A DNA stretch of 13,971 nt from UHGV virus genome UHGV-1842250; one strand, 5' to 3'. This DNA is from a virus. The notes under the pieces were generated by a model that was not told the DNA's origin, searched no databases, and worked only from the letters and a program-made list of their open reading frames with translations. This document shows, piece after piece, positions 136-12,711 of this stretch (positions are counted from its first letter, which is position 1; each line of letters begins with the position of its first letter). A program made the translations under genes and the position numbers.

Positions 136-150
136 TTACCTTAAAGGTAT
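136..150. promoter_or_regulatory. Operator-like site upstream of int (TTACCTTAAAGGTAT), nested in a larger inverted repeat
   Basis: Matches the window-wide TTACC-N5-GGTAA motif at 9 of 10 fixed positions. It contains the 13-bp perfect palindrome TACCTTAAAGGTA and is flanked by TGACGGTAT (129-137) / ATACCGTCA (158-166). It overlaps a candidate -10, TATACT (148-153), about 40 bp before the int start. Confidence 0.4.
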
Positions 151-192
151 ACTCTCATACCGTCATGAAAATGGTTTCTATACGGGTGAATT

Positions 193-1449
193 GTGCTTAC
201 CGATACAAAATTAAAAAACCTCAAGCCGCAGGACAAACTGTACAAGGTCTCCGATCGTGACGGGCTGTATGTAGCTGTGCTTACGTCAGGCACGGTCTCG
301 TTTCGCTATGACTACCGTATCAACGGTCGCCGCGAAACACTGGTAATCGGGCAGTATGGGCGTGACGGTATCAGCCTGGCAGAAGCGCGAGAAGAACTGA
401 TTGCTGCAAAGAAGCTGCTTAAAGCAGGCCAGTCGCCGGCTGCGGCTAAACGTGACGGTATCAAAAAGATTCGTGGTGCCGAGACGTTTGCGGTACATAC
501 CGACAGTTATATGAAACACGTCATCCTGGCTGACAGTACCCGCGCAATGAAGCAGGCGGTGATCGACCGTGACATACTTCCGGTTCTTGGCAACAAAATG
601 ATGGCTGAAATTACCACATCGATGGTTCGTGATTTGTGTGACCGGATTGTCGAACGCGGTGGTCGGGCAACAGCAGTACAGGCCAGGGAGATCATCAGCA
701 GCGTATACCGTCACGCCAATGACCGTGGTCATGGTTTGTTTAATCCTGCGGCTGACATTAAACCTTCGTCTATCGCCATATTTAAACCACGAGAGCGAAC
801 ACTGACACCAGAAGAAATTGGCCTGTTCTTCCGCACGCTGGATGCCATTTGTGCTATGGGCACTATGAAAATGGCTTTAAAGCTGGTGCTTATCACTATG
901 GTTCGTAAAGGCGAATTCACCAATGCAACGTGGGATGAAATAGATTTTAAAAAATGGACATGGACAATTCCTTCAGACCGCATGAAGGGAAGCCGGGCGC
1001 ACGTTATTTACCTGCCTAAACAGGCACAGGATATATTGGTTGGGTTGCAGATGTGCGCTGGTGGAAGTGAATATCTGGTTCCTGGTCGTTACAATTTCCG
1101 GAAGCCATTATCTAATGCCGCGCTGAACTCTCTGATCGACAGAACGGTGAAAATAATAAATGAAGATGGTGAGCATATTCAGGACTTCACCGTACACGAT
1201 ATGCGCCGTACAGCAAGTACGTTGTTGCATGAGGCTGGTTATCCTTCAGACTGGATTGAAAAGGCTCTGGCACATGAGCAGAAAGGTGTGCGCGCCGTAT
1301 ATAACAAAGCGGAATACGCCAGACAGCGCGCCTACATGTTGCAGCAGTGGGCCGATATGATTGATTCCTGGATTAACGGGGAGCATACGGATCTGATTCC
1401 GTTCTCCCCGTCGAAGTTTGAGAGGTGGATGGAAGACAGTAATAAATAA
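193..1449 (+). CDS. int: Tyrosine site-specific integrase, P4/IntS-like family
   Basis: 418-aa ORF with GTG start. The N-terminus (MLTDTKLKNLKP...DGLYVAV...G...RY) is typical of P4-type integrases, and the C-terminus has catalytic-region motifs (HDMRRTASTLLHEAGY ... YNKAEYARQR). Confidence 0.93.
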   Translation: MLTDTKLKNLKPQDKLYKVSDRDGLYVAVLTSGTVSFRYDYRINGRRETLVIGQYGRDGISLAEAREELIAAKKLLKAGQSPAAAKRDGIKKIRGAETFAVHTDSYMKHVILADSTRAMKQAVIDRDILPVLGNKMMAEITTSMVRDLCDRIVERGGRATAVQAREIISSVYRHANDRGHGLFNPAADIKPSSIAIFKPRERTLTPEEIGLFFRTLDAICAMGTMKMALKLVLITMVRKGEFTNATWDEIDFKKWTWTIPSDRMKGSRAHVIYLPKQAQDILVGLQMCAGGSEYLVPGRYNFRKPLSNAALNSLIDRTVKIINEDGEHIQDFTVHDMRRTASTLLHEAGYPSDWIEKALAHEQKGVRAVYNKAEYARQRAYMLQQWADMIDSWINGEHTDLIPFSPSKFERWMEDSNK

Positions 1450-1451
1450 TT

Positions 1452-2111
1452 CTATCCTTCCTGGACTTTGGTAAGCGTCAGATTTCCGCAGAACACTGCG
1501 CCGGTGTCGATGTACATCTGGTTTGCATACACCAGTGGGTGATGTGCTGGCGTATGACCGAAGATGAACAAATCGGCACCGGTTATCTCCGAGACAATAC
1601 CGTCCTGCGCGTCGCTAACCCGCTCACGATTCCATATCACCATTTCTTCTGGTACTTGCTTATCGAATGCGTATTCGTTGTGCGGGTAGTCTGCGTGACA
1701 GATGACGACCTTCTTATTGCCGGTAACCAGTTCGATAATCATCGGGAGGTTGGTAATCTTTGGCAGAAGGTATTTGAGTTGCACATCCTGCTCAGAATCA
1801 AGTTGGTGCCACCATCCACCGCCGTTTGACATCCAATGTCCGAAACTTCCGCCGTTGACCAGTGCATCCAGCATCATCTGCTCATGGTTGCCACGAACAG
1901 CTCGGAACCACGGCATAGTAATCAAATCCAGGCATTCGACGTTTTCAGCGCCGCGGTCAACAAGGTCACCAACGGAAATAAGTAAATCGCGCGCCGGGTC
2001 GAATGAAACTTTGTCGAGTTCGTTCATCAGCAGCGTGTAGCACCCATGCAGATCGCCGACGACGAAGATATTGCACCAGTCAGCGCCATTGATGCGTTGA
2101 TATAGGTTCAT
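1452..2111 (-). CDS. Ser/Thr protein phosphatase, lambda-PPase / PrpA-B family metallophosphoesterase
   Basis: The translation carries the metallophosphatase signature GDLHGCY ... GDLVDRG ... GNHE ... ICHADYP ... GHTP. Start refined to the ATG at 2111 ([12 protein letters not shown]), which overlaps the upstream stop as ATGA; the track's longer N-terminus runs into the upstream gene. Stop TAG at 1452-1454, 2 bp from the int stop. Confidence 0.93.
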
Positions 2112-2758
2112 GCTGCACGCTCCCGCCCCTGGTTGTCTATTGGTGACACCGGAGCATTGCTGAATGCATTTGTTAATCCGCCAATATCCAACGCGTATCC
2201 AGGGTGTAGTTGCACTGCCGGGTCTTCGCACTGATTACCCCAAACATCGAAGCCATGAGACGTCTGGCGGGCGAACAGTTCAATGCGAGAAACATCGCCT
2301 AACAATTGCACAAGTTTTTCACGAACGACATCTGGTTTTCTTGAATGCTCAAGCCGCGGTGCGGTAAATGACTGAACGATCCCTGCATTAATGCGTGGAG
2401 GTAGTTTTCCCTTTACTGCAAACAGGCAATCTTCACTATTGGCGCGAGTCATGTGTCCCATACCCATAACCAGTTTATCTGGTTGTCGACTACCACATTT
2501 TATCCACGTGAAGCCCTTCATCGTCATCAGACGAAATCCCCAGGCTTCAACAACTTTTAGTGCTTCGAGTGGTTGTGTTGGCACCCACCACATGGCCAAC
2601 AGACAGTTTTCAGCGGTCAAATCCCACACAGGAAGGCGGCAGATATCCAGCACACTCATAACTGGATATTTAAAACCGGCACCGCGATTACCATCTGCGG
2701 CTTTGTCCCGGTATACCCAGGGTGGATCTGCATAGATTAGTGTGTATTTCTTAGTCAT
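2108..2758 (-). CDS. MT-A70-family DNA N6-adenine methyltransferase
   Basis: N-terminus [16 protein letters not shown] contains the DPPW catalytic motif of MT-A70 / phage Dam-like methyltransferases. Start ATG at 2758 is preceded by a G-rich SD (GGGGTGG); the stop TGA overlaps the phosphatase ATG as ATGA. Confidence 0.88.
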
Positions 2759-3050
2759 AAACCACCCCACAACATCCTATGCCGCTATAGTCGCCACGGC
2801 GAAGGCCGTTACCTTTTGTGATACATTGGTCCCTGCGAACCGCGATCCTTGCACGTTCAACATCACCAGAAGCAACATCCATACACTGAAGCCAAAGGTG
2901 AGCGGCAATGCGGAATTGCCCTTTTTTCTCTCTTTCAATCGCGCGTTTTTCGATCTCTATCGCCGCAGGAGTAACGGCGACAATCTTTGAAGGGCTGCGC
3001 ATTGAAACCTTGTTCATGTGATATTTTTCAAGTCGGCTTAACTTTCTCAC
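2751..3050 (-). CDS. Hypothetical protein, function unknown
   Basis: Only sizeable ORF filling the 400-bp gap between the excisionase and methyltransferase genes on the operon strand. GTG at 3050 is preceded by GAGGG; alternative ATG starts at 3017 and 3002. Its 3' end overlaps the methyltransferase start by 8 nt. I recognise no family. Confidence 0.45.
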   Translation of the reverse strand: MRKLSRLEKYHMNKVSMRSPSKIVAVTPAAIEIEKRAIEREKKGQFRIAAHLWLQCMDVASGDVERARIAVRRDQCITKGNGLRRGDYSGIGCCGVVYD

Positions 3051-3159
3051 TTAATCCAACCCTCTCTGAAAATTAATGCCAGCAGATAAAGCCATGCTGA
3101 AACAGAGGCCAGGAATAAGTACCATCCTGACCATTTGCTCCAGTGCCTTAGCAGCGCAC

Positions 3160-3408
3160 TCATGCAGCGTTGCTCACAGGACGATATACACGTTGCTGAA
3201 CAGGAGGCTTTTTACCCTGGAACTCTGCCGGGCTTGCAGCCTGACGTTCATCAAGCCAACGCTCAACTTCGTCACGGTTCCATGCGCAGCGTTTGTCAGT
3301 GATATACCAGCGTTTAGGAAATTCCCCTGCGCGCTCCATACGGTCGATAGTGCTCCATGACAGTGGCACCACCGCCAGGAGTTCCTTCTTACCTAATGCA
3401 CCTTTCAT
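3160..3408 (-). CDS. AlpA/Vis-type excisionase or transcriptional regulator (small HTH protein)
   Basis: 82 aa with an AlpA-like motif (LLAVVPLSWSTIDRMERAGEFPKRWYITDKRCAWNRDEVERWL). SD GAGAGG sits 6 nt before the ATG at 3408. This type commonly partners P4-family integrases. Confidence 0.82.
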   Translation of the reverse strand: MKGALGKKELLAVVPLSWSTIDRMERAGEFPKRWYITDKRCAWNRDEVERWLDERQAASPAEFQGKKPPVQQRVYRPVSNAA

Positions 3409-3430
3409 AAATACCTCTCTTGGTTGCAGT

Positions 3431-3451
3431 GCGGCGCGCGTGGCGCCGCGG
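3431..3451 (-). other. GC-rich hairpin between the bet and excisionase genes, no U-tract
   Basis: GCGGCGC (3431-3437) pairs with GCGCCGC (3443-3449) around a 5-nt loop. No T-run follows on either strand, so it is not a canonical intrinsic terminator. Confidence 0.3.
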
Positions 3452-3457
3452 TGGTGG

Positions 3458-4399
3458 TTACATAGATGTTTCGTTTAATTCTTCTCGACGAACGCTGTAA
3501 ACGTCGGTGGCTTTTGCCAGCAGTTCGTCATCATCTGAAAGTTTTTGTGCAATGTATTTGTAAGCCTTATCCAGTTCGGAGACAGTGCTGTAATTCATCG
3601 CTGCGCTGGTAAAGGCCATCAGCATTTCTTCTGGATCACGGCTATCCGATTTACGCGTTTGCTCATCAGGCTTTTTCGCTGGTTTAGCGTTGATCAGACT
3701 GTTCATTCCCGCAGCAGTGGTCGTTTGCGGAGTAATGTCTCGCTCAACGCGCGGTGCCGTTTCCTGTAATTCGTCTGGGGTGTAGACGCCCATGATTACG
3801 TCAGGACAGTGCAGGCGAGACCAGCGTTTTGTCGCAAGGTATGCGAGTTGTTGTTTCGGATCACTGGCCCAAAGTGTGGAGTTTCTTACCTGTGCTTGAG
3901 ACAGCATTAACTCAAGCACTCGAGGTTGATCCTCGCCCTTCATGGTTGCCCATACGCGAACACCGCAGCCTTCTTCGTCTTTTAGAGTCCAGCCTGGTGC
4001 GATATATGGATTGCCGTTTTTGGATGTTTTCTCAACAAACTTACCGATCACGCGTTCCCACGGCCCAAACCACTCGTAGTTGATGCGATCTTTTGTTGGC
4101 GACATCGTTGAGATAACTGCGTTTACTAATTGGGCTTCATAACCTAGCGTGCCGTTCACAACATGGGTTTTCTGAGCCACGGCAAACGGGTTCATTCCCC
4201 ACTGCGCAGCCTGCATTGCCACGGCCATGCAATCAGCTGGTTTCCCGGCGAGGTGCGCCGGTACCGTTACGCGGCTTTGCGCCATTACCTCGGCGAATTT
4301 CATCAGTTGGTTCAAGCCGTCTGGGCTGAAAATAGTTGCAGCAGTTCCAGCGATTGCTGTGTCTACTGGTGCGTTGATGTTTGCGATGTCGTTGCTCAT
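3458..4399 (-). CDS. bet: Single-strand annealing protein, RecT/Red-beta (Bet) family
   Basis: 313 aa. The segment ETAPRVERDITPQ resembles the lambda Bet region ERQPERDITPV, and the gene sits directly downstream of an exonuclease gene as in the lambda exo-bet pair. Start ATG at 4399 has AGGA upstream and overlaps the exonuclease stop (ATGA). Confidence 0.85.
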   Translation of the reverse strand: MSNDIANINAPVDTAIAGTAATIFSPDGLNQLMKFAEVMAQSRVTVPAHLAGKPADCMAVAMQAAQWGMNPFAVAQKTHVVNGTLGYEAQLVNAVISTMSPTKDRINYEWFGPWERVIGKFVEKTSKNGNPYIAPGWTLKDEEGCGVRVWATMKGEDQPRVLELMLSQAQVRNSTLWASDPKQQLAYLATKRWSRLHCPDVIMGVYTPDELQETAPRVERDITPQTTTAAGMNSLINAKPAKKPDEQTRKSDSRDPEEMLMAFTSAAMNYSTVSELDKAYKYIAQKLSDDDELLAKATDVYSVRREELNETSM

Positions 4400-4926
4400 A
4401 TGTACATATCCTGTTTGCGTGCCCACTCAGGGCGTTTAATGATTTCCACACCGCCCCATTCATCATTGATGCGGCATTCGTGATAGGTATTCAGATCCCG
4501 GCGGAACAGAGCGTGCCCGGCATCGACATCCTGCGCATCCAGCTCGAACACGCGTACCGGATACCGACCACAATCAATGCTTTCGCTCACGGCAAGAAAG
4601 AAAAAACCATGCGGCTGACCAGTAACCCTCATTGCGCCTTCGCGGTACATTGCGTCCTGCACGTGGTAGCGGAATTCCTCGATGTGGCGTGCAAAACGGT
4701 CCATATCTGCAACCTTTTTCACGTCGACGATCACGTTGTGCTCGTTCAGCCATTTGTCTGGACGAATTCGGCACAACTCACCCGTCTCTTCATCGTTCCA
4801 GTACATTGATGCTTCGCAGTAACCAGGTGCTTCCAACATCCAGCGTGCCGCCGGATGAGCCATTGCGCTATCACGCATAAGCTCCAGTTTCCGCCACTGC
4901 TCGGCATCAAGTACCGTAATCACCAT
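4396..4926 (-). CDS. PD-(D/E)xK exonuclease, C-terminal part (gene interrupted by a frameshift)
   Basis: Contains the nuclease core motifs RIRPD ... VIVDVKKV. This reading frame is open from 5130 to 4396, but its first ~55 codons overlap the N-terminal fragment's frame and look non-coding; 4926 is the first internal ATG. The partner fragment is 4937..5212. Confidence 0.7.
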   Translation of the reverse strand: MVITVLDAEQWRKLELMRDSAMAHPAARWMLEAPGYCEASMYWNDEETGELCRIRPDKWLNEHNVIVDVKKVADMDRFARHIEEFRYHVQDAMYREGAMRVTGQPHGFFFLAVSESIDCGRYPVRVFELDAQDVDAGHALFRRDLNTYHECRINDEWGGVEIIKRPEWARKQDMYI

Positions 4927-4936
4927 ATCCGCCACA

Positions 4937-5212
4937 TCACGAAGCCTCTTCGTCAGCTTTACCTTGTTTCGTCCGACGATCGAATTTCGGTGAAACAATG
5001 AAGCGTTTGTCGAACTCTCCAGGCTCCAGAAGCAGACAGTGCAATGCGGTTCCCATATCCAGTGCAGACTTTTTCTCTTCGTCTTCTGGTGCTGCCTGAA
5101 CCCATTTAAGAAGCGCCGGATTCTTGGCAACCATGTCCAGTTGCGACTTACTCACGCCGTCACCGGCGTGGTAGTCTTCGTTGCTGATGTCGAAATAAAT
5201 TCCCGGTTTCAT
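4937..5212 (-). CDS. PD-(D/E)xK exonuclease, N-terminal part (ends at a premature stop after a probable frameshift)
   Basis: 91 aa beginning MKPGIYFDISNEDYHAGDGVSKSQL ... GTALHCLLLEPGEFDKRF, which looks like the N-terminal region of phage Cas4/RecB-like exonucleases. Good SD (GAGGGA) before the ATG at 5212. The frame stops at 4937 while a second frame continues the nuclease domain. Confidence 0.7.
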   Translation of the reverse strand: MKPGIYFDISNEDYHAGDGVSKSQLDMVAKNPALLKWVQAAPEDEEKKSALDMGTALHCLLLEPGEFDKRFIVSPKFDRRTKQGKADEEAS

Positions 5213-5508
5213 GCCGCGTCCCTCTGTCCATCAAGCTGATCCGCCAGATCCCAGCGGGCGATAATTGCCATTGCCTCGCGCCGGTAGGCATCCATAAGTT
5301 CTTCGAACTCAGGGCTGTCTTTAGCTGCCTCCAGCACTTCCTGGCGAACTCCTTTGCCTGTTACAGCGTCAAAAGTTGAGGCCAGTTGATGAAGCCGGAT
5401 GCTCTCGATCAGTTCAACTTGTCGGTCATATAACTGTTCTGACAGGCGGTAGTCCTTGTCGAATGCCAGCATGATTTTTTGAAGATTTTTCTGCTGATTA
5501 ACGTTCAT
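5209..5508 (-). CDS. Hypothetical early protein, function unknown
   Basis: 99 aa from the ATG at 5508 (MNVNQQKNLQK...), which has a strong SD (GGAGG, 8-nt spacing). The stop overlaps the exonuclease ATG (ATGA). It sits where lambda carries N, but is not arginine-rich, so not N-like. Confidence 0.6.
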   Translation of the reverse strand: MNVNQQKNLQKIMLAFDKDYRLSEQLYDRQVELIESIRLHQLASTFDAVTGKGVRQEVLEAAKDSPEFEELMDAYRREAMAIIARWDLADQLDGQRDAA

Positions 5509-5510
5509 TA

Positions 5511-5663
5511 TCAGCCCTCCCATATCTCGTTATCGTTGGCTACATCGCGAGCTTCTTTGCTGACGAAAGCCCACTTAATGCCTTCCTGTAAGGTGCGGAA
5601 CTTCCAGCTCATGAATCCGCATGCAGTAACGCAGTACCAACCGTTGATGATTTTCCACTGCAT
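5511..5663 (-). CDS. 50-aa micro-ORF, first gene of the leftward operon, possibly cIII-like
   Basis: Translated by hand as MQWKIINGWYCVTACGFMSWKFRTLQEGIKWAFVSKEARDVANDNEIWEG. It lies about 27 nt downstream of the predicted leftward promoter, has GAGG upstream, and stops 2 nt before the next start. Loose resemblance to lambda CIII (MQYAIAGW..AGC ... RKLRDGWKRLI). Too short for the ORF track. Confidence 0.35.
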   Translation of the reverse strand: MQWKIINGWYCVTACGFMSWKFRTLQEGIKWAFVSKEARDVANDNEIWEG

Positions 5664-5682
5664 AACTTGTTACCTCGGTCTG

Positions 5683-5697
5683 TTACCGTTGAGGTAA
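5683..5697. promoter_or_regulatory. Operator site, perfect palindrome TTACCGTTGAGGTAA, promoter-proximal in the leftward (PL-like) promoter
   Basis: Exact TTACC-N5-GGTAA. It abuts the candidate -10 of the leftward promoter, and an extra TTACC half-site sits at 5670-5674. Confidence 0.6.
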
Positions 5698-5725
5698 TAA
5701 TTATGCGTATATGGTTTGGTGTCAA
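5697..5725 (-). promoter_or_regulatory. Candidate leftward early promoter (PL analogue)
   Basis: On the minus strand: perfect -35 TTGACA (5725..5720), 17-bp spacer, -10 AATTAT (5702..5697). Flanked by operator sites at 5745-5759 and 5683-5697, the same layout as the promoter at 8778-8806. Confidence 0.5.
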
Positions 5726-5744
5726 TAGATATGAGTTAAAAAAA

Positions 5745-5759
5745 TTACCCGTTAGGTAA
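5745..5759. promoter_or_regulatory. Operator site, perfect palindrome TTACCCGTTAGGTAA, promoter-distal in the leftward promoter
   Basis: Exact TTACC-N5-GGTAA, centred 62 bp from the site at 5683-5697. Confidence 0.6.
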
Positions 5760-5772
5760 TCGAATAGGCAAT

Positions 5773-5795
5773 AAAAAAGCCGCCATAAGGCGGCT
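5773..5795 (-). terminator. Rho-independent terminator after the repressor gene
   Basis: On the minus strand, stem GCCGCC / GGCGGC with 4-nt loop followed by a U-tract (plus strand AAAAAAGCCGCCATAAGGCGGCT), about 20 bp after the repressor stop codon. Confidence 0.65.
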
Positions 5796-5816
5796 TACTT
5801 ACTGAAAAATATGATT

Positions 5817-6401
5817 TTATTGTTTGTTTTTTTCGTTCTGGTTGATGACAAATTCAATGTAACTTTCGATCTTTGCCTTCTCTGTTTCAGGTAACAATGC
5901 GTAGCGCGAGCGGTCATAGTTGATAGTTGCAGGGTCATGCGGATGAATCAGTAGTTCATATCCGTGACGCCCGAATGCAGATGCAACATTCTCCAGGGTG
6001 GAAATGGAAACGCTGACCTCATTGTTTAACAGGCGGCTTATTGTCACCTGGGCGACGCCGGATGCGCGGTGAAGTTTTCCCTGAGTTGAAAGGTCGCGGC
6101 TTTCACTCATCCAGCGTTCCAGGTTGTGAGCTGCCAGCTGACCAATGTCGCTTGGGCCGACAGGCTGAAAACCTTCCTGAGAAAGCGAGCGATCGATATC
6201 AAGCCAGTTACGGGGTTTATTGGCGGCAGCTTCAATTTTTCGCGCAACCTGGTCGCCGATAACTTTCTTGCCAAGAGCCCAGCGGTTTACCAGATTTGCC
6301 TGAGTTCCAAGTTTTTCTGCCATCCGCGTCTGAACACCATTGAATTCACGGTCGATCAAGTCGTTGAGATTTTGCCTGCGGACGTCCTGGATACTTTTCA
6401 T
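5817..6401 (-). CDS. Phage repressor (cI analogue) with two HTH domains and no recognisable LexA/S24 autocleavage domain
   Basis: 194 aa, divergent from the Cro-like gene across an operator-rich spacer. HTH-like segments QTRMAEKLGTQANLVNRW and ASGVAQVTISRLLNNEVSVSISTLENVA. No S24 peptidase serine-lysine dyad or Ala-Gly cleavage context seen. No SD before the ATG, so the transcript may be leaderless. Confidence 0.8.
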   Translation of the reverse strand: MKSIQDVRRQNLNDLIDREFNGVQTRMAEKLGTQANLVNRWALGKKVIGDQVARKIEAAANKPRNWLDIDRSLSQEGFQPVGPSDIGQLAAHNLERWMSESRDLSTQGKLHRASGVAQVTISRLLNNEVSVSISTLENVASAFGRHGYELLIHPHDPATINYDRSRYALLPETEKAKIESYIEFVINQNEKNKQ

Positions 6402-6456
6402 TTTCTGGAAAATCGCCTCATATATGAATCAGTAGATGATTCAATTTAAAGCAATA

Positions 6457-6519
6457 TTACCCAACAGGTAAATGCACCTCATAGGTAACTATCCTTGATT
6501 TTTGTTACCTTATGGGTGA
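6457..6519. promoter_or_regulatory. Immunity-region operator cluster of three sites between the repressor and cro-like genes, with divergent promoters
   Basis: Sites at 6457-6471 (TTACCCAACAGGTAA, perfect), 6474-6488 (GCACCTCATAGGTAA) and 6505-6519 (TTACCTTATGGGTGA). Candidate rightward promoter: -35 TTGATT (6494-6499) or TTGTTA (6502-6507), -10 TATTAT (6525-6530), overlapping the third site. Confidence 0.6.
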
Positions 6520-6555
6520 ATATTTATTATCTGAAATAAATATCAGGCAATAGCT

Positions 6556-6786
6556 ATGAGCGATAACGGACATTTCGATTTCAAAAAGCACTGGCTTGCA
6601 CTTACTCCGGATGAGCGTGAAGCCTTCGCACAGGAAGCCGGAACGACGAGTCACTATATCCAGACTCACTTAACAGGTAAGCGCAAAATGCCAGGTAAAG
6701 TATTGATGAATGGGCTTTTTAAAGCCTGTAAAACAAGACAATGGCTGCGCTCAAAAGCAGAACTGGCATACTTCTTCTACTCATGA
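6556..6786 (+). CDS. Cro/CII-like small HTH regulator, first rightward gene
   Basis: 76 aa at the cro position of the divergent immunity cassette, with an HTH-like segment EAFAQEAGTTSHYIQTHLTGKRK. Followed immediately by an intrinsic terminator. Confidence 0.75.
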   Translation: MSDNGHFDFKKHWLALTPDEREAFAQEAGTTSHYIQTHLTGKRKMPGKVLMNGLFKACKTRQWLRSKAELAYFFYS

Positions 6787-6807
6787 TATCCAGCTACAAC
6801 CCTCTGT

Positions 6808-6830
6808 AGACCGCCACCCGGCGGTCTTTT
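6808..6830 (+). terminator. Rho-independent terminator after the cro-like gene (tR1-like position)
   Basis: Stem AGACCGCC (6808-6815) / GGCGGTCT (6820-6827), loop ACCC, T-tract at 6827-6830. Confidence 0.6.
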
Positions 6831-6841
6831 CATATCTATTC

Positions 6842-6856
6842 GTACCTCAAAGGTAA
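6842..6856. promoter_or_regulatory. Operator-like site GTACCTCAAAGGTAA between the terminator and the replication genes
   Basis: 9 of 10 match to TTACC-N5-GGTAA, with the ACCTCA core shared with the sites at 5683, 6474 and 8806. An AT-rich stretch with weak promoter-like hexamers follows (6870-6920). Confidence 0.4.
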
Positions 6857-6934
6857 TAAAAAACCAAATATGGTTGATCAAATTTTCCAATTGTGCAAAA
6901 TAGCCAATATCAATAACAAAAAGGGGCGGAAAAA

Positions 6935-7147
6935 TTGAAGATAGTAACCAGAATGGAGGCCGCAAAAGCCGGGTTAAATCGCTATTTCACAGGAAAGCGG
7001 TGCCGTCACGGCCATCTCTCTGAAAGGTATGTTCTGAACGGAACATGTGTTGAATGTGCAATGAATAGCGCCAACCGCCATCGTAATGAATTTGCTTGTG
7101 CACTAAAGAGTGCAAGAGGGGAAACCTATGGCAAGCAGCTGGATTAA
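6935..7147 (+). CDS. Small Zn-ribbon protein (C-x3-H...C-x2-C), function unknown
   Basis: 70 aa from a TTG start at 6935, preceded by AAGGGG; the internal ATG at 6953 has no SD. Motif RCRHGHLSERYVLNGTCVEC. Its end overlaps the start of the O-like gene by 20 nt. Confidence 0.55.
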   Translation: MKIVTRMEAAKAGLNRYFTGKRCRHGHLSERYVLNGTCVECAMNSANRHRNEFACALKSARGETYGKQLD

Positions 7148-7958
7148 GGTTGAAGTTATCACTCCTGATAAACCTGAAATTTTTCAGATAGCAGAAATTC
7201 TGGGTATTGATCCAGATGCTGTTCTTGGAAAGCTGGTTCGTATATGGGCATGGGCTGACCAGCAAACAATAGACGGTAACGCTGGCAGCGTTACAAAAGG
7301 AGTACTTGATAGACTCGCTTTTATTACAGGATTTGCTGACGCCCTCATTAGCGTCGGATGGCTTGCTTATCATGACGGCAAACTAATTCTTCCAAACTTT
7401 GAGCGACATAATGGAGAATCATCGAAAAAACGTGCACTTACGAATAGAAGAGTGGCAGAGCATCGAAAACGAGTAACGCAAAAAGTAACGCCAACAGCGT
7501 TACAAAAGGAGTTACCAGAGGAAGAGGAAGAGGAAGATATATATAAAACCCCACACATAGCGCACGTGCGCGAGGGTGCTCCGACCAGTGAAGCGAACGG
7601 TATGCCGTTGCAGGTGGCTGAACCTGAATTTCTGGATGGCCTGAGTGAACCCATCGGGAAATTTCCGATGACCGATGGCTGGCATCCGTCGCCGGATTTT
7701 CGACGGCGTGCTGCGCTGTGGGGAACGGCCCTGCCGGAACCGGAATTTACACCTGCTGAACTTGCTGCATTCCGGGATTACTGGATGGCTGAGGGCAAAG
7801 TGTTCACGCAGGTTCAGTGGGAACAAAAATTCGCCAGGCACGTAAATCATATCAGGGGAAAATCAAAAAACGCCGGGAAAAGCGATGAGCTTGACTGGAA
7901 TAACACTGACTGGATAGAAGGGGTGTGGGATGAAATCAACTCCAGAACTTCTCAATGA
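7128..7958 (+). CDS. Replication initiator (lambda O analogue) with DnaT-like C-terminal domain
   Basis: ATG at 7128 preceded by SD GAGGGG. C-terminal motif PSPDFRRRAALWG...PEPEFTPAELAAFRDYWMAEGKVFTQVQWEQKFARHV resembles the DnaT/primosomal C-terminal domain. Iteron-like repeats and an AT-rich patch lie inside the gene, and the lambda-P-like gene follows directly. Confidence 0.8.
   Translation: MASSWIKVEVITPDKPEIFQIAEILGIDPDAVLGKLVRIWAWADQQTIDGNAGSVTKGVLDRLAFITGFADALISVGWLAYHDGKLILPNFERHNGESSKKRALTNRRVAEHRKRVTQKVTPTALQKELPEEEEEEDIYKTPHIAHVREGAPTSEANGMPLQVAEPEFLDGLSEPIGKFPMTDGWHPSPDFRRRAALWGTALPEPEFTPAELAAFRDYWMAEGKVFTQVQWEQKFARHVNHIRGKSKNAGKSDELDWNNTDWIEGVWDEINSRTSQ
7276..7548. repeat. Candidate replication origin inside the O-like gene: iterons, 18-bp exact direct repeat, (GAGGAA)x3 and AT-rich patch
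   Basis: GTAACGC at 7276, 7473 and 7485; its inverse GCGTTAC at 7288 and 7497 (12-bp periodicity in the second cluster). CAGCGTTACAAAAGGAGT is repeated exactly at 7286-7303 and 7495-7512 and is read in different codon frames (AGSVTKGV vs PTALQKEL). CATCGAAAA(A)ACG at 7420 and 7461, GAGGAA x3 at 7518-7535, GATATATATAAAA at 7536-7548. Confidence 0.6.
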
Positions 7959-8706
7959 GTACGATCGCTTACGTGAGCATGGTGTTGCTGTGCATGAAGA
8001 GCGGCGTGACAGCAATGGCAAAAAGGAGCAGGTTGCTAGAATTTTCAATGAACTATTTGTCCAGTTACAGGCTGCATTTCCTGCAAGCGTTTCGACCATA
8101 AGGGAGCAGAACAAACTTAATGAATTCCGTAAGCAATGGATGCTTGCGTTTCTGGAGAATGGGATCACAACAATGGAACAGGTTAACGCTGGTATGCGCC
8201 ACGCCCGCGCCAGTGAATCTCCGTTCTGGCCGTCGCCTGGGCAATTCATCAAGTGGTGCAAAGACAGCAAGATGGTTCTTGGCGTCACCATTGACGATGT
8301 GATGGCGGAGTTTCACCGGTACAGCAAGGAAAAAAGTTTATATCCTGGTGGTCCCGAAAGATTCCCGTGGCGACATCCGGTTATGTACTGGGTCGTATGT
8401 GATACCCGCCGTGCAATGTATCAGCGCCAGCTTAGCGAGATTGAGGTTGAGAAACACGCGCGCAGGCTGCTCGATGATTGGGCGAAAAAGGTGGCTTCCG
8501 GACAGCAGATACCCGATCCGGTGATCAGCATACAGGCAAAGCCAGAACCCATGAGTACACCTCCGGACACAGGGAGAGACGTTTACCATCCACCAGGGCG
8601 AAGTTTCGGGTGTATGCCTAACGCCGCCACCCTGGGGGGAATAACACCGGCGCAGTGGCTGATGGAGGAATACAGGCGGGGAAAGGCGGCAGGATTTATC
8701 AAGTAA
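7930..8706 (+). CDS. P: Replication protein P-like DnaB helicase loader
   Basis: Strong resemblance to lambda P over the block VARIFNELFVQLQAAFPAS...FRKQWMLAFLENGITTMEQVNAGMRHAR...PFWPSPGQFIKWC (lambda P has ...ATFPAS...RRQWVLAFRENGITTMEQVNAGMRVAR...PFLPSPGQFVAWC). Start overlaps the end of the O-like gene. Confidence 0.93.
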   Translation: MKSTPELLNEYDRLREHGVAVHEERRDSNGKKEQVARIFNELFVQLQAAFPASVSTIREQNKLNEFRKQWMLAFLENGITTMEQVNAGMRHARASESPFWPSPGQFIKWCKDSKMVLGVTIDDVMAEFHRYSKEKSLYPGGPERFPWRHPVMYWVVCDTRRAMYQRQLSEIEVEKHARRLLDDWAKKVASGQQIPDPVISIQAKPEPMSTPPDTGRDVYHPPGRSFGCMPNAATLGGITPAQWLMEEYRRGKAAGFIK

Positions 8707-8712
8707 TACCAG

Positions 8713-8730
8713 CGCGATAGCGCATTTTTT
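8713..8730 (+). terminator. Weak candidate intrinsic terminator after the P-like gene
   Basis: 4-bp GC stem (GCGC / GCGC) with GATA loop followed by seven T residues. The stem is short, so this is low confidence. Confidence 0.3.
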
Positions 8731-8743
8731 TACGTCTTGATAA

Positions 8744-8758
8744 TTACCTGCTAGGTAA
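8744..8758. promoter_or_regulatory. Operator site, perfect palindrome TTACCTGCTAGGTAA, promoter-distal in the promoter for the accessory block
   Basis: Exact TTACC-N5-GGTAA, centred 62 bp from the site at 8806-8820, the same spacing as the pair at the leftward promoter. Confidence 0.6.
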
Positions 8759-8777
8759 TAAAATGTTCTAAGATCTA

Positions 8778-8806
8778 TTGATTTCGTGTCTTATGTGGTT
8801 TTTAAT
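8778..8806 (+). promoter_or_regulatory. Candidate sigma70 promoter for the accessory block, duplicated PL-type architecture
   Basis: -35 TTGATT (8778-8783), 17-bp spacer, -10 TTTAAT (8801-8806). The flanking sequence CTATTGA and the operator spacing match the leftward promoter at 5697-5725. Confidence 0.55.
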
Positions 8807-8820
8807 TACCTCAGGGGTAA
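8806..8820. promoter_or_regulatory. Operator site, perfect palindrome TTACCTCAGGGGTAA, overlapping the -10, start region and SD of the gene at 8824
   Basis: Exact TTACC-N5-GGTAA. Its GGGG also serves as the ribosome-binding site for the ATG at 8824. Confidence 0.6.
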
Positions 8821-8823
8821 ATC

Positions 8824-9168
8824 ATGAGAAAACAGATACAGGCTCTTGGTCGACTCAAAACAGGCCAGATGAACAAAACAGAATCTGCGTATTGCCAGCA
8901 CCTTGAGCAGCGTAAACGTGCAGGGGAAATCGCCTGGTATCGATTCGAGGGTATCAAGTTGCGGTTAGCTGACAACACGTTCTATACGCCCGATTTTGCT
9001 GTGATGCTCGCCACCGGCGAGATGGAACTGCACGAAGTGAAAGGTTTCTGGACCGACGACGCCAGGGTGAAAACCAAAGTCGCCGCAGATCAGTATCCGT
9101 TCCGAATCATCGGGGTAACGGTTAAGCCAAAGAAAGCAGGTGGTGGCTGGAACATCGAAGAGTTCTGA
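8824..9168 (+). CDS. DUF1064-like phage protein with PD-(D/E)xK-like nuclease motifs
   Basis: 114 aa with YTPDF ... HEVKG, consistent with a D ... ExK nuclease core. Family name is from memory. Confidence 0.7.
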   Translation: MRKQIQALGRLKTGQMNKTESAYCQHLEQRKRAGEIAWYRFEGIKLRLADNTFYTPDFAVMLATGEMELHEVKGFWTDDARVKTKVAADQYPFRIIGVTVKPKKAGGGWNIEEF

Positions 9169-9229
9169 ATCGACGATCTTTTTAGTTATCAATGTAATCA
9201 ATAAGTTATGTGGATAAGCGAGGGTAAAG

Positions 9230-9724
9230 ATGGAAAGTAATATCAAAGGGTTAGTTGCCGCCGGGCATGAGATGGCTTCGGAACTGAAAGCAGAATGTGG
9301 TGCCGTTGATATGCGCAGTGTGGCAAAGCTGATCAGCGATTTGGCAGCGCAACTGGAAGTGCAACTGGTGCGTGCTAATGCGCTGGCCGAAGACCACCAG
9401 AGAGCGATTGAGTCAATTAAGCAGGCTGATTCGGCTGTTAAGTTGGCACACGAGAAGTTTTCGGCGCTGGCGGCGGAGAATGCGGGGCTGAACAAGTTCA
9501 TCAAAGATGATTGCTGGATTTGGGATGACAAAAGTGAAGAGTATTTCGACGCTGCTGACTGTATGCCAGAAACCCCAGCCACCGACGCCTCCCTTGCTGA
9601 AGTGCGGGCGCAGGGTGTGGAAGCATTCGCCAATAGCCTGAAGGTTGCCGGTGGTCATGAACATCCATATTCAGCGGTAGCCAACGAGTTCGCCGACCAG
9701 CTTCGCAAAGGAGGCAACCAGTGA
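9230..9724 (+). CDS. Hypothetical coiled-coil protein, possibly ead/Ea22-like
   Basis: 164 aa, SD GAGGG before the ATG, predicted helical N-terminus. The family assignment is tentative recall, not verified. Confidence 0.55.
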   Translation: MESNIKGLVAAGHEMASELKAECGAVDMRSVAKLISDLAAQLEVQLVRANALAEDHQRAIESIKQADSAVKLAHEKFSALAAENAGLNKFIKDDCWIWDDKSEEYFDAADCMPETPATDASLAEVRAQGVEAFANSLKVAGGHEHPYSAVANEFADQLRKGGNQ

Positions 9725-10353
9725 GCGAAATTAATTACCAGGCACTGCGTGAGGCGGCGGAACGTGCAATTCCAGCAATGGAACGCCTGTTAATGTTGCC
9801 AGTTGATGATGATCTGATAAGCGAACAGGAACTTAAAGATTACGGCGTGGATATTGATGCGCTCAACGCCTTCAAATTTCTGACCGGACCAGAAACCGTG
9901 CTGGCGCCGCTGGATGAACGGGAAAGAAACCAGCAATACATCAAATCCCGCGACCAGGAGAACGAGGAAATTGCGCTAACGGTTGGGAAGCTGCGTGTTG
10001 AGCTGGAAGCAGCAGAATCAAAACTCAACGAGCAGCGTGAGTATTACGAAGGTGTTATCTCGGATGGAAGTAAGCGCATAGCAGAACTGGAAGCGCGGGA
10101 AATAAAACCAGCCAAAGGTGAAGTTCTGGTCGTTGTATCTGGTTTTACTGGTTGCGGAAAAAGCGCCATTGCCGGGGAAATAGAAATCGCGATGAAGGCT
10201 ATTGGTGTACCGGTTAAGTGGACTAATGGCGATGCAGAAAAGCGCATGACTGGCGCTGACTGGCTGACTGCGATTGAGATGTACAAACCAACTGTGCGCA
10301 TCGTGGAAGTTAATGTGCCACGCGCCGCTGGCATTCGCATCAAAGGAGAGTGA
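9721..10353 (+). CDS. Hypothetical coiled-coil protein, possibly ead/Ea22-like
   Basis: 210 aa from a GTG start that overlaps the previous stop (GTGA), with AGGAGG upstream. N-terminus MSEINYQALREAAERA, a glutamate-rich coiled-coil centre, and a GCGKS-containing C-terminus. Confidence 0.55.
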   Translation: MSEINYQALREAAERAIPAMERLLMLPVDDDLISEQELKDYGVDIDALNAFKFLTGPETVLAPLDERERNQQYIKSRDQENEEIALTVGKLRVELEAAESKLNEQREYYEGVISDGSKRIAELEAREIKPAKGEVLVVVSGFTGCGKSAIAGEIEIAMKAIGVPVKWTNGDAEKRMTGADWLTAIEMYKPTVRIVEVNVPRAAGIRIKGE

Positions 10354-10354
10354 G

Positions 10355-10546
10355 ATGAACGGACAAATCTCAATTGTTCGACCGGGAGCATGTGACGATC
10401 GCGAGATACGACTGATTATTCGTCTGGCGATGGGGAAAACAATAACTGCTCTCATTACTCCTGAAAATCTCGCATTAGCATTAACAGGAAAGTCAGACCT
10501 TCCATTAGAGCTAAAGCTGCGAAATGTTGAGATTAAGGTGAAATAG
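10355..10546 (+). CDS. Small hypothetical protein (63 aa)
   Basis: Start refined to the ATG at 10355, with SD AGGAGAG and 1 nt after the previous stop. The track's N-terminal extension overlaps the upstream gene. No family recognised. Confidence 0.5.
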   Translation: MNGQISIVRPGACDDREIRLIIRLAMGKTITALITPENLALALTGKSDLPLELKLRNVEIKVK

Positions 10547-10548
10547 CT

Positions 10549-11391
10549 ATGACCACTATTACCAAAGAACGTATCGAATTATTCATTAAAAATCCGCTTG
10601 ATAACGGGCTTACTCGTGGCGAACAAATGGAACTGGCACGAATTGCACTGGCATCACTGGAACGCGAACTGATTCGCCACGAGCATGCCAAATGGTCTGA
10701 CTCCACATTTGGCTGCGTTGGCCCCATTGGTCCACTGAAACACCTCTCAAAAGAGGCTCTGGAAGCCGCAGCCGAACCAGACGATCTCAGCGAGTGGGCT
10801 GATATGCATTTCCTGTTGTGGGATGCACAGCGCCGTGCTGGCATCAGCGATGCTGAAATTACCGCTGCTATGGAAGATAAATTGAAGATCAACATGGAGC
10901 GCCAGTGGCCTGAACCAAAAGATGGTGAGCCTCGCTTGCACATTAAAGAACCCGGCAACTCTCCGGTAATTCCGGATGGTTTATCCACGGTATGCGCTGA
11001 GGCTTATCAGGTTGTAGGAGTTATGGCAGATGCGCTTGGTGTATTCGGTGATGCAGCAGTACAGAAAGTTCTGGATAACCTGTCACAGCAAAAACTTGTT
11101 CACAGAGATGTGCTGCCGTTCTCGCTTCCGGTAACTCCGGATGGTTGGGTTATGGTGCCGAAGAAACTAACCGCTGAGAACGGCGCTAAGGGTGTGCTAT
11201 CCGGTGAATTTTCAGAAACTACGTTTATAAGCTGCCCGGAATGCTTTGGCGATGATGATTGCGATACCTGTGACGGGAGCGGACGAATTGAAATTAAAGT
11301 ACCAGTCACGTGGACGACCATAAAATCCATTTGGGATAAAGGTATTGCGCATTTTGCAGCAAAACCGCCGCAGGAGGTTAACCGTGGCTAA
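10549..11391 (+). CDS. MazG-like nucleotide pyrophosphohydrolase domain protein (DUF550-like) with C-terminal Cys-rich Zn-ribbon
   Basis: 280 aa. The N-terminal helical segment (GEQMELARIALASLERELIRHEHAKW ... EWADMHFLLWD) resembles the MazG/DUF550 all-alpha NTP-pyrophosphatase fold. C-terminal CPECFGDDDCDTCDGSG is a metal-binding knuckle. Starts 2 nt after the previous stop. Confidence 0.55.
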   Translation: MTTITKERIELFIKNPLDNGLTRGEQMELARIALASLERELIRHEHAKWSDSTFGCVGPIGPLKHLSKEALEAAAEPDDLSEWADMHFLLWDAQRRAGISDAEITAAMEDKLKINMERQWPEPKDGEPRLHIKEPGNSPVIPDGLSTVCAEAYQVVGVMADALGVFGDAAVQKVLDNLSQQKLVHRDVLPFSLPVTPDGWVMVPKKLTAENGAKGVLSGEFSETTFISCPECFGDDDCDTCDGSGRIEIKVPVTWTTIKSIWDKGIAHFAAKPPQEVNRG

Positions 11392-11665
11392 CCTGCAACT
11401 TATCCTCAAAGGTGAATACTTCGATGCCATGATTCGCGGAGAGAAAACGGAAGAGTATCGCCTGTGTAATGACTACTGGAATAAGCGAATTATGTTCCGG
11501 GAGTATGACCGCCTGATTATCACAAAGGGATATCCGAAGCGCGACGATTCCAGCCGTAGAATTGATGTTCCGTATGACGGATATGAAATCAAGACAATCA
11601 CACATCCGCACTTCGGAGATAAACCGGTAAAGGTGTTCGCGATAAAGGTAAATATTGATGGCTAA
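11384..11665 (+). CDS. ASCH/DUF3850-like PUA-fold domain protein
   Basis: GTG start at 11384 with a perfect SD (AGGAGG, 6-nt spacing), overlapping the upstream stop. N-terminus LQLILKGEYFDAMIRGEKTEEYR matches the usual ASCH opening. Confidence 0.6.
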   Translation: MANLQLILKGEYFDAMIRGEKTEEYRLCNDYWNKRIMFREYDRLIITKGYPKRDDSSRRIDVPYDGYEIKTITHPHFGDKPVKVFAIKVNIDG

Positions 11666-11996
11666 ATCAGCAGCAGAGCGCAAAGCCGCTCAGAGAGCCA
11701 GACAAGCTGCATCTGGTGTGCGTAAGCTGGAGATTGTGCTTGATGCTCAGGAAATTGAAATGCTGGAGCGTAACTGTGCCACGCGTCGCCCCGGGCGTGC
11801 GCCTTACGAATTTGGTGAGTATATAGCGTTACTGATCCGCCAGGATGATGCACGCGTGCACGGGCGTATAAAATCGATCAGCAGAACACGTTGCGGTAAG
11901 TGCGGCGAGAGAGTTCCAGTTAATTCATGTCCGTGTAATGGTGACTCACAATGCTGGGTGACTAAAGGCTGGCATGAAACGAAATTAATAGTGTGA
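11658..11996 (+). CDS. Basic N-terminal / Zn-ribbon C-terminal small protein, candidate late-gene regulator
   Basis: 112 aa. Basic helical N-terminus (ERKAAQRARQAASGVRKLEIVLDAQEIEMLERN) and C-terminal CGKCGERVPVNSCPCNG. Last gene before the pre-terminase terminator. The regulator assignment is positional inference only. Confidence 0.55.
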   Translation: MAKSAAERKAAQRARQAASGVRKLEIVLDAQEIEMLERNCATRRPGRAPYEFGEYIALLIRQDDARVHGRIKSISRTRCGKCGERVPVNSCPCNGDSQCWVTKGWHETKLIV

Positions 11997-12004
11997 CATG
12001 TCAC
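11993..12004. promoter_or_regulatory. 12-bp perfect palindrome GTGACATGTCAC overlapping the stop codon of the preceding gene
   Basis: Perfect dyad lying about 40 bp upstream of the terminator at 12046-12071. Could be a protein-binding site. Confidence 0.3.
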
Positions 12005-12045
12005 GAGTAGATTATGCATGATGAATTTGACGGGTTTTGAATACT

Positions 12046-12071
12046 GCCGCCAACTATGGCGGCTTTATTTT
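12046..12071 (+). terminator. Strong rho-independent terminator between the early/accessory genes and the terminase genes
   Basis: 7-bp GC-rich stem GCCGCCA (12046-12052) / TGGCGGC (12057-12063), 4-nt loop ACTA, then TTTATTTT. Confidence 0.7.
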
Positions 12072-12082
12072 GCATGGTACTA

Positions 12083-12115
12083 TTACCACAACGGTAACTA
12101 TTACCACGGTGGTTA
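12083..12115. promoter_or_regulatory. Tandem operator-like sites immediately upstream of the terminase small-subunit gene
   Basis: Perfect TTACCACAACGGTAA (12083-12097) followed 18 bp later by TTACCACGGTGGTTA (12101-12115). Half-sites chain as GGTA-cta-TTACC-N5-GGTAA-cta-TTACC-N5-GGTTA, echoing GGTAACTATCC at 6485-6495. No convincing sigma70 -35/-10 pair nearby. Confidence 0.5.
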
Positions 12116-12711
12116 TGATGCCTGCTGAACCTAAAACCTATAAACGCAAATCAACGCAATTTAAGCCACTAACAGCAATGCAGGAGGCTTATTGCCAGTC
12201 ATACATCAAAACGCCTGAAAACCAGACTCAGGCAGCGATTAACGCAGGATTCTCCCCAAATACAGCGGCAGTTAAAGCCAGTGTCATGATGCGCGATGAA
12301 CGCATTCAAAAACGGATTGCCGAGTTGATGGAGGAGCGCAACAAACGAATGCGCGTCAGTGCTGATTACGTTCTCATGCGCCTGGTGGAGATCGACCAGA
12401 TGGACGTGATCGACATCCTCAACGACGATGGGAGCCTTAAACCAATCCGTGAGTGGCCGAAAATCTGGCGCACTACGCTTAGTGGCTTTGATCTGTCATC
12501 GACCATCATGAACATGAACGAGGATTCGATAGAGACAATCCTCAAAAAAATTAAATGGCCTGACAAGGTGAAGAACCTTGAGCTGATTGGTAAGCATGTT
12601 GATGTCAACGCGTTCAAAGAACGTCTGGATGTTAATGTGAATGTGACAATTGCTGATCGCATAGCAGCAGCCAGGAAGCGACTCAAAGAACGTCAGGATG
12701 GTAATCAGTGA
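12115..12711 (+). CDS. terS: Terminase small subunit
   Basis: Resembles phage small terminase subunits (AYCQSYIKTPENQTQAAINAGFSP...AAVKASVMMRDERIQKRIAEL) and sits directly upstream of, and overlapping, the large-subunit gene. Start taken as ATG 12115 (or 12118); the track's TTG at 12037 would run through the terminator and operator sites. Confidence 0.82.
   Translation: MMPAEPKTYKRKSTQFKPLTAMQEAYCQSYIKTPENQTQAAINAGFSPNTAAVKASVMMRDERIQKRIAELMEERNKRMRVSADYVLMRLVEIDQMDVIDILNDDGSLKPIREWPKIWRTTLSGFDLSSTIMNMNEDSIETILKKIKWPDKVKNLELIGKHVDVNAFKERLDVNVNVTIADRIAAARKRLKERQDGNQ

Follow-up and report, generated by a model that had tools for sequence, protein, structure and literature searches.

Eleven copies of a 15-base-pair (bp) palindrome, TTACC-N5-GGTAA, are distributed along a 13,971-nucleotide stretch of viral DNA (UHGV virus genome UHGV-1842250; this whole stretch is hereafter the window), which comprises the left-hand portion of a phiV10/epsilon15-like (Uetakevirus) prophage located directly 3' of guaA. 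The question raised by this locus is which protein reads these copies and how widely it governs the transcription units of the phage. Based on sequence comparisons, we consider it very probable that the palindromes serve as operators for Rep, a protein of 194 amino acids (aa) that acts as the master lysogeny repressor of the prophage. A sequence-only reading of the window had proposed that one DNA-binding protein, likely this repressor, controls integration, early and late functions together. That proposal appears to be supported by the homology of the protein to the Rep of SPC32H, by the silencing exerted by the repressor of phage ZX5, by the annotation of epsilon15 and by the conserved positions of the sites in related phages.

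Abundance, location and conservation of the palindrome

Six copies of the palindrome are perfect (beginning at 5683, 5745, 6457, 8744, 8806, and 12083). We used 200 dinucleotide shuffles of the window as the baseline for enrichment; 0.01 perfect copies were expected and none of the 200 shuffles reached six. When one mismatch was permitted the number of sites rose to ten, with the addition of those at 136, 6505, 6842, and 12101, against 0.22 expected, and ten was likewise reached in no shuffle. The six perfect copies are those which the sequence-only reading had listed, at the same coordinates. It had also counted five copies matching at nine of the ten fixed positions; four of these are the additional sites just given, whereas the fifth, at 6474-6488 (GCACC-TCATA-GGTAA), matches at eight. 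Despite its two mismatches, we judge this copy to be a real site because it is aligned with a perfect TTACC-N5-GGTAA in both epsilon15 and SPC32H.

All 11 copies are wholly non-coding, as had been claimed, in a window of which non-coding DNA makes up 9.3% according to a gene map drawn from the list of open reading frames and the annotated relatives. The chance of such a placement is ~5e-11 when computed for ten independent sites and ~7e-7 for six loci. Matches with two mismatches also fall inside genes, at a level of the kind produced by chance. There is no copy in three short intergenic gaps within operons (3051-3159, 3409-3457, and 9169-9229), nor in the gap at 10354-10548, and the sites therefore mark the starts of transcription units and not non-coding DNA generally.

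Strain KC-Dl-1 carries a near-identical prophage of ~40 kb that also adjoins guaA, with int first. We took 200 kb of the KC-Dl-1 chromosome away from this prophage as the host background, and found one perfect copy, situated inside a gene, compared with nine in the prophage. A chance origin of the palindromes is ruled out by the shuffles together with this background.

The palindrome occurs at orthologous positions in epsilon15, SPC32H, phiV10, Tyrion, Klebsiella phage BUCT711, and the KC-Dl-1 prophage, which have 15, 18, 14, 15, 13, and 14 sites, respectively, at no more than one mismatch, against ~0.5-0.75 expected in each. All of these relatives have sites ahead of terS, int, and the accessory block, as well as at the leftward early promoter (pL) and within the repressor/cro spacer. 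Beyond the range of the window, further sites in the relatives precede the portal block and the lysis genes, and others lie around ant and the tailspike gene. Their perfect copies are intergenic except under two doubtful gene calls (the TTG start of phiV10 terS, and Tyrion gp39), and the few copies inside other genes all carry one mismatch.

Supporting the assignment to a repressor is the fact that the GenBank record of epsilon15 (AY150271.2) contains seven protein_bind/repressor/lysogeny features, all seven of which are TTACC-N5-GGTAA sites. These annotated sites lie at pL and before terS, the portal block, the tailspike, and the accessory block. The record thereby covers 7 of the 15 sites that we found in epsilon15; the int site, all three sites of the repressor/cro spacer, and the second site of the accessory pair are left unannotated.

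We aligned the regions containing the sites from the window, phiV10, Tyrion, epsilon15, and SPC32H (alignments A1-A5, with the KC-Dl-1 prophage added to the terS alignment, A5). Whereas the half-sites are invariant, N5 varies freely and is conserved only where it doubles as a ribosome-binding site (8806-8820 and 12101-12115). This pattern bears on whether the palindromes could act as RNA, in the form of small 5'-leader hairpins serving as processing or stability signals. Each perfect site does fold into a hairpin of 5-7 bp (-3.5 to -5.5 kcal/mol; z of about -3 relative to shuffles), and RNase III sites are annotated nearby in the epsilon15 record. However, these hairpins are weak, and several sites lie upstream of a -35 box or in a promoter spacer, so would be untranscribed from that promoter. 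Moreover, the imperfect copies (GGTAT, GGTGA, GTACC, GGTTA, and GCACC) break the pairing without compensation, which therefore argues for recognition by a protein and not for RNA pairing. We rejected a hairpin role, which we consider extremely improbable, based on the absence of compensatory pair changes in the half-sites across the genus.

Probable assignment of the sites to Rep

The 194-aa protein matches the SPC32H Rep structure PDB 5D50 over residues 1-190 (E 4e-42), making it a full-length homolog, and its residues 89-190 match PDB 5D4Z, the C-terminal tetramerization fragment of Rep. It is 100% identical to the repressors of phiV10 and ZX5. A Pfam search with this protein returned only helix-turn-helix (HTH) families, including HTH_3, and no Peptidase_S24 self-cleavage domain. 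In one study (PMC9638917), SPC32H Rep is described as a tetramer on palindromic DNA sites in which the pairs that read DNA are formed by subunits from different dimers. A 2023 structural paper (PMC9986798) describes an N-terminal DNA-binding domain, a middle dimerization domain, and a C-terminal tetramerization domain that resembles those of p53 and the looping repressor Rco; it also states that the antirepressor Ant inactivates Rep and calls the mechanism of repression by Rep little characterized so far. Overexpression of the ZX5 repressor abolished free phage and lowered endolysin transcripts by 99.99% and holin transcripts by 99.97% (PMC9782041).

Among relatives that carry orthologous sites, identity to the Rep of the window ranges from 42 to 78%, with values of 42-45% for epsilon15 (~43%), SPC32H, and BUCT711. 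The probable recognition helix, NLVNRW, nevertheless does not vary among the five aligned Uetakevirus Rep proteins. Three further Uetakevirus relatives, identified by tblastn against phages, have the same motif and the same recognition helix, and we therefore conclude that Rep and its operator do not co-vary within the genus; a search for loci with which to extend the Rep alignment recovered only those with 99-100% identical Rep. Distant homologs of the N-terminal part of Rep are present in Pseudomonas PseuP_224 and Moraxella Mcat9, and these have different recognition helices. The palindrome was not reported by inverted-repeat searches of the regulatory regions of PseuP_224 and Mcat9, which fits the assignment to Rep, albeit weakly. 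The PseuP_224 homolog is annotated as cI and has a C-terminal half that is different from, and longer than, that of the window's Rep.

The 76-aa Cro-like protein encoded next to rep could be the main reader of the dispersed sites, shutting down the early, integration and accessory units in lytic growth, with Rep confined to the repressor/cro spacer. Cro proteins classically share operators with their repressor, as in lambda and P22. The Cro-like protein matches a PHROG family of transcriptional repressors (PHROG 35) and is 76% identical to epsilon15 gp39 (76-84% among relatives), and its HTH-like segment, AGTTSHYIQTHLT, is as invariant across the genus as the half-sites are (A7). However, published binding to palindromes (PMC9638917) and silencing of late genes (PMC9782041) concern Rep, with nothing comparable known for the Cro-like protein. 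Sites before late genes suit a lysogeny repressor and not a lytic-phase Cro, and the annotators of epsilon15 gave the sites to the repressor. We consider it unlikely that the Cro-like protein is the main reader, although Rep and the Cro-like protein may share sites, so the two assignments are not strictly exclusive.

We also considered that another factor reads the motif, such as the PerC-like or AlpA-like regulators, a host protein, or a phage methyltransferase with the motif as its target, and we find this very improbable. The window does encode two more small regulators and an MT-A70 methylase, but accessory regulators and methylases vary among the relatives (the epsilon15 block differs) while the sites stay the same. 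A target of methylation or restriction would be expected outside promoters as well, and the nearly motif-free host chromosome argues against a host regulon. More favorable to another factor is an unrelated HTH family in Lachnospiraceae which appears to use the same palindrome, implying that several proteins can read it.

When reference genomes were scanned for pairs of perfect sites separated by 45-75 bp, at least 120 loci were found. Among the matches listed, three Enterobacteriaceae loci have spacings of 62 or 63 bp, and at least ~20 Lachnospiraceae/Clostridia loci have spacings of 55-58 bp. The Lachnospiraceae/Clostridia pairs flank promoter-like sequence, and only the palindromes and the promoter elements are conserved between loci (A9); examples are L148 (pair at 2021-2092, gene at 2241-3293) and L127 (5759-5829, gene at 5870-6952), along with L098, L118, L139, L150, and L165. 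The gene downstream in L148 and L127 encodes a ~350-aa protein in which a HigA-like Xre HTH, with a recognition helix unlike that of Rep, is joined to an HExxH (ImmA/IrrE-like) domain. These loci look like an autoregulated family that is unrelated to Rep and has the same operator and promoter-sandwich layout. Other arrangements include a tandem array in Trabulsiella guamensis (2225-2335), where perfect copies occur at a 24-bp period in runs of five or six, and clustered runs of five or six perfect copies at mixed spacings (L197, L209, and L170).

Several of these observations weigh against Rep as the reader of every copy. The putative recognition helix of the Cro-like protein is as invariant as that of Rep, and conservation therefore cannot assign the sites to Rep alone. 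Similarly, because an unrelated HTH family has the same palindrome pair, the palindrome alone is not diagnostic of Rep. In addition, with promoters defined solely as matches to the sigma-70 consensus, no acceptable -35 box was found ahead of terS and no clear promoter was found at the 6842 site. At terS, the claim of the sequence-only reading that the copies mark candidate promoters is thus not established. For the sites outside the repressor/cro spacer we infer binding by Rep from its SPC32H homolog.

Probable operators, candidate promoters and the 62-bp pairs

The operators, the promoters with which they are associated, and the genes concerned are listed in Table 1.

Table 1. Operator copies, candidate promoters and relevant genes, in order along the window.
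Feature	Position	Strand	Remarks
int-promoter operator TTACCTTAAAGGTAT, 9/10	136..150		last three bases open -10 box TATACT (148-153)
Tyrosine integrase gene (int)	193..1449	+	Pfam Phage_integrase and Arm-DNA-bind_3
PerC-like and AlpA-like small regulators	2751-3050, 3160-3408		
Promoter-proximal pL operator, perfect	5683..5697		covers last base of -10 box and expected transcription start; half-sites invariant (A1)
pL promoter TTGACA-17-AATTAT	5697..5725	-	best sigma-70 match in window, 10/12
Upstream pL operator, perfect	5745..5759		62 bp center-to-center from 5683-5697; 19 bp upstream of -35 box
rep repressor gene, 194 aa	5817..6401	-	N-terminal HTH DNA-binding, middle HTH-like dimerization and C-terminal tetramerization domains
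OR operator 1, perfect	6457..6471		in -35 box and spacer of leftward candidate rep promoter TTTACC-17-TTAAAT
OR operator 2, GCACC-N5-GGTAA, 8/10	6474..6488		17 bp from operator 1; perfect in epsilon15 and SPC32H
OR operator 3, 9/10	6505..6519		in spacer of rightward cro-like promoter, -35 box TTGATT at 6495-6500
cro-like gene, 76 aa	6556..6786	+	PHROG 35 transcriptional repressor, E 5.6e-13
Single operator GTACC-N5-GGTAA, 9/10	6842..6856		after cro terminator (6808-6827), ahead of replication genes
Upstream accessory-block operator, perfect	8744..8758		ahead of DUF1064/accessory promoter
Candidate accessory promoter TTGATT-17-TTTAAT	8778..8806	+	pL-like geometry; TTGA and -10 region invariant (A2)
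Downstream accessory operator, perfect	8806..8820		62 bp from 8744-8758; carries ribosome-binding site of gene starting at 8824
terS operator, perfect	12083..12097		after terminator 12046-12063, directly before terS
Degenerate second terS site TTACC-N5-GGTTA, 9/10	12101..12115		18 bp from first; overlaps terS ribosome-binding site GGTGG
terS (small terminase)	12121..12711	+	Pfam Terminase_2, E 1e-29; conserved ATG start

The A-to-T mismatch in the int site is identical in phiV10, Tyrion, epsilon15, and SPC32H (A4), and this conserved 3' mismatch, GGTAT, creates the predicted -10 box of int, such that operator and putative promoter overlap. A 9-bp inverted repeat, TGACGGTAT / ATACCGTCA at 128-136 and 157-165, brackets the int operator and -10 box and is invariant in the five phages (A4). 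Over the region orthologous to 128-165, the epsilon15 record has an RNase III site and an integrase-binding site.

At pL, the TTGAC of the -35 box and the -10 box are conserved in the five phages (A1). A third perfect operator is present 76 bp past the pL pair in epsilon15 (32479-32493) and SPC32H (33528-33542), shortly before the first early-left gene; in Tyrion a copy with one mismatch lies further downstream, and the window and phiV10 have none. Tyrion gp39 (34059-34271, 70 aa), encoded on the opposite strand from the early-left operon, covers pL and the operators there. This gene call is probably spurious because the same region is non-coding in the relatives (A1).

In the repressor/cro spacer, TTTACC-17-TTAAAT is proposed as a candidate rep promoter from its conservation (A3), and the -35 box of the rightward cro promoter is invariant in the same alignment. 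BUCT711 has operators 1 and 2 as a perfect pair with the same 17-bp spacing. The 6842 site, with the same G mismatch, is present in phiV10, Tyrion, and KC-Dl-1 but absent from epsilon15 and SPC32H, making it specific to the phiV10/Tyrion branch.

The -35 box of the candidate accessory promoter starts 27 bp past the center of the upstream operator, and the first T of the downstream operator is also the last base of the promoter's -10 box. The promoter scanner offered an alternative candidate, TTGATA-16-TAAAAT at 8737-8764, with the upstream operator in its spacer.

Orthologs of the 12101 site have one mismatch in epsilon15 and two in SPC32H. Rep bound ahead of terS may act on an activator-dependent promoter or as a roadblock. 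In the phiV10 record and in RefSeq for KC-Dl-1, terS starts at a TTG equivalent to position 12037 of the window, and thereby engulfs the terminator at 12046-12063 and both operators. The ATGCC at 12121 is conserved in all relatives (A5) and is the annotated start in epsilon15, SPC32H, and Tyrion, and on this comparison the ATG appears the likelier start of terS.

The spacing of the paired operators is highly conserved. Both the pL and the accessory pairs are 62 bp center-to-center in the window, phiV10, Tyrion, epsilon15, SPC32H, and KC-Dl-1, and in BUCT711 the accessory pair is at 62 bp and the pL pair at 63 bp. Among 80 phiV10-like loci from IMG/VR, the accessory pair is at 62 bp in every locus that has both sites, despite shifts of up to 74 bp in its distance from rep, and the pL pair is at 62 bp in most loci and at 61 or 63 bp in a few. 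A distance of 62 bp corresponds to ~5.9 helical turns, and paired operators would therefore face the same side of the helix. The conserved spacing suggests that paired operators are bridged by one Rep tetramer, a step for which we draw on the two DNA-reading pairs of the tetramer and the precedent of Rco, whose operators are ~75 bp apart.

A possible, though tentative, extension is that Rep is a whole-genome silencer that clamps promoters, its tetramer bridging the 62-bp pairs in micro-loops while the same protein occupies the single operators at int, the replication genes, terS, the portal block, the tailspike gene, and the lysis genes. If this is true, one antirepressor that removes Rep would fire the entire phage program with no dedicated late activator. 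Counting against the bridging step, a 62-bp loop would be tight, and PMC9638917 states that one Rep tetramer suffices for repression with its geometry unspecified.

Based on the SPC32H homolog, Rep would read each 15-bp site through a pair of N-terminal HTH domains, and it would have two such DNA-reading pairs because it works as a tetramer. The positions of the sites are ones that would block RNA polymerase: the -10 box of int; the start site and the region upstream of the -35 box at pL and the accessory promoter; and the spacer of the cro promoter. The operator in the -35 box and spacer of the candidate rep promoter would provide negative autoregulation, and the sites that follow terminators ahead of the replication genes and terS could occlude weak promoters or block read-through. 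At pL and the accessory promoter, one tetramer is envisaged to bridge both operators and clamp the promoter in a small loop.

Release from Rep is expected to proceed through Ant. Kim and Ryu reportedly found in 2013 that LexA controls ant in SPC32H and that Ant inactivates Rep. In the KC-Dl-1 prophage, the interval 40188-40536, which has its counterpart beyond the range of the window, contains the gene for an 85-aa homolog sharing 87% identity with SPC32H Ant. Just upstream of this gene is a perfect LexA box (CTGTATATTTATACAG, 40467-40482), and a Rep operator at 40522-40536 lies between the ant homolog and the tailspike gene. By extension from these relatives, DNA damage would cause LexA to leave the ant promoter, Ant would dismantle the Rep tetramers, and all transcription units would be released at once.

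The gene order in the window is int (rightward), a leftward early operon (methylase, PerC-like, AlpA-like, and RecT/exonuclease genes), the repressor (leftward), the cro-like gene (rightward), replication genes, the DUF1064/accessory block, terS, and terL. Position 1 of the window is the base right after the guaA stop codon, as judged from the coordinate offset relative to KC-Dl-1, and the window therefore opens where prophage and host meet. For ZX5, the attachment core is published as attgagtgggaatgatt and lies at the 3' end of guaA. The region 5400-7000 shares 97-98% identity with phiV10, TL-2011b, vB_EcoP_ZX5, and other Uetakevirus (epsilon15-like) podophages, and was found in 562 of 5426 complete E. 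coli genomes. Because roughly one complete E. coli genome in ten has a prophage of this type beside guaA, knowledge of the operator set is useful for interpreting prophage induction and for the design of reporters or curing strategies.

Comparison with known regulatory systems

The closest counterpart is epsilon15 (AY150271.2), which is of the same genus and has the identical palindrome and the same gene order, with sites before terS, a 62-bp pair within its pL cluster, and the accessory pair. It differs in that its Rep is ~43% identical to that of the window and in that it has no site of the 6842 type. The likeness to the Rep-Ant-LexA system of SPC32H extends to full-length homology of Rep, the same motif at the same places, and the lack of an S24 domain in the window's Rep; ant and a LexA box are present in the close relative KC-Dl-1, the ant region lying beyond the 14-kb window. 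A repressor with operators at every transcription unit is thus already known, being annotated in epsilon15 and belonging to a repressor family with a crystal structure and a described mode of induction. What may be new is the 62-bp promoter sandwich, the overlap of the int operator with the -10 box, and the fuller list of sites, none of which was found in the accessible literature, the primary epsilon15 and SPC32H papers apart. In that accessible literature we likewise found no description of a strict 62-bp spacing across the genus with Rep proteins down to ~42% identity. The remaining mechanistic interest of these fixed pairs is whether a Rep tetramer represses by bridging two sites.

The arrangement of three operators (6457, 6474, and 6505) between divergent repressor and cro genes resembles the CI/Cro system of lambda, as do the further operators at the leftward early promoter across the repressor gene and the likely use of promoter occlusion and autoregulation. 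Unlike lambda, the window's Rep has no C-terminal S24 domain for RecA-stimulated self-cleavage. Nor are the operators in the window confined to two early promoters: others accompany int, the replication genes, the accessory block, and late genes. The sequence-only reading had likewise called the layout wider than the OL/OR arrangement, which is borne out by the sites at int, past the cro terminator, and at the accessory block and terS. Furthermore, pairs in the window flank a promoter at a fixed 62 bp, whereas lambda operators are adjacent.

For the paired operators, the nearest likeness is to Rco of the Bacillus plasmid pLS20, an HTH repressor that forms tetramers and, through a p53-like TetDloop domain, loops operators ~75 bp apart (PMC9986798). 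Rco differs in reading multiple direct repeats and in needing several tetramers, whereas the operators in the window are single palindromes at which looping by Rep would be by analogy. The combination of an N-terminal HTH and a C-terminal tetramerization domain is shared by Rco and SPC32H Rep, according to the same paper, and the two systems are alike in having two sets of operators at a short, fixed distance around promoters and in being relieved by a protein anti-repressor.

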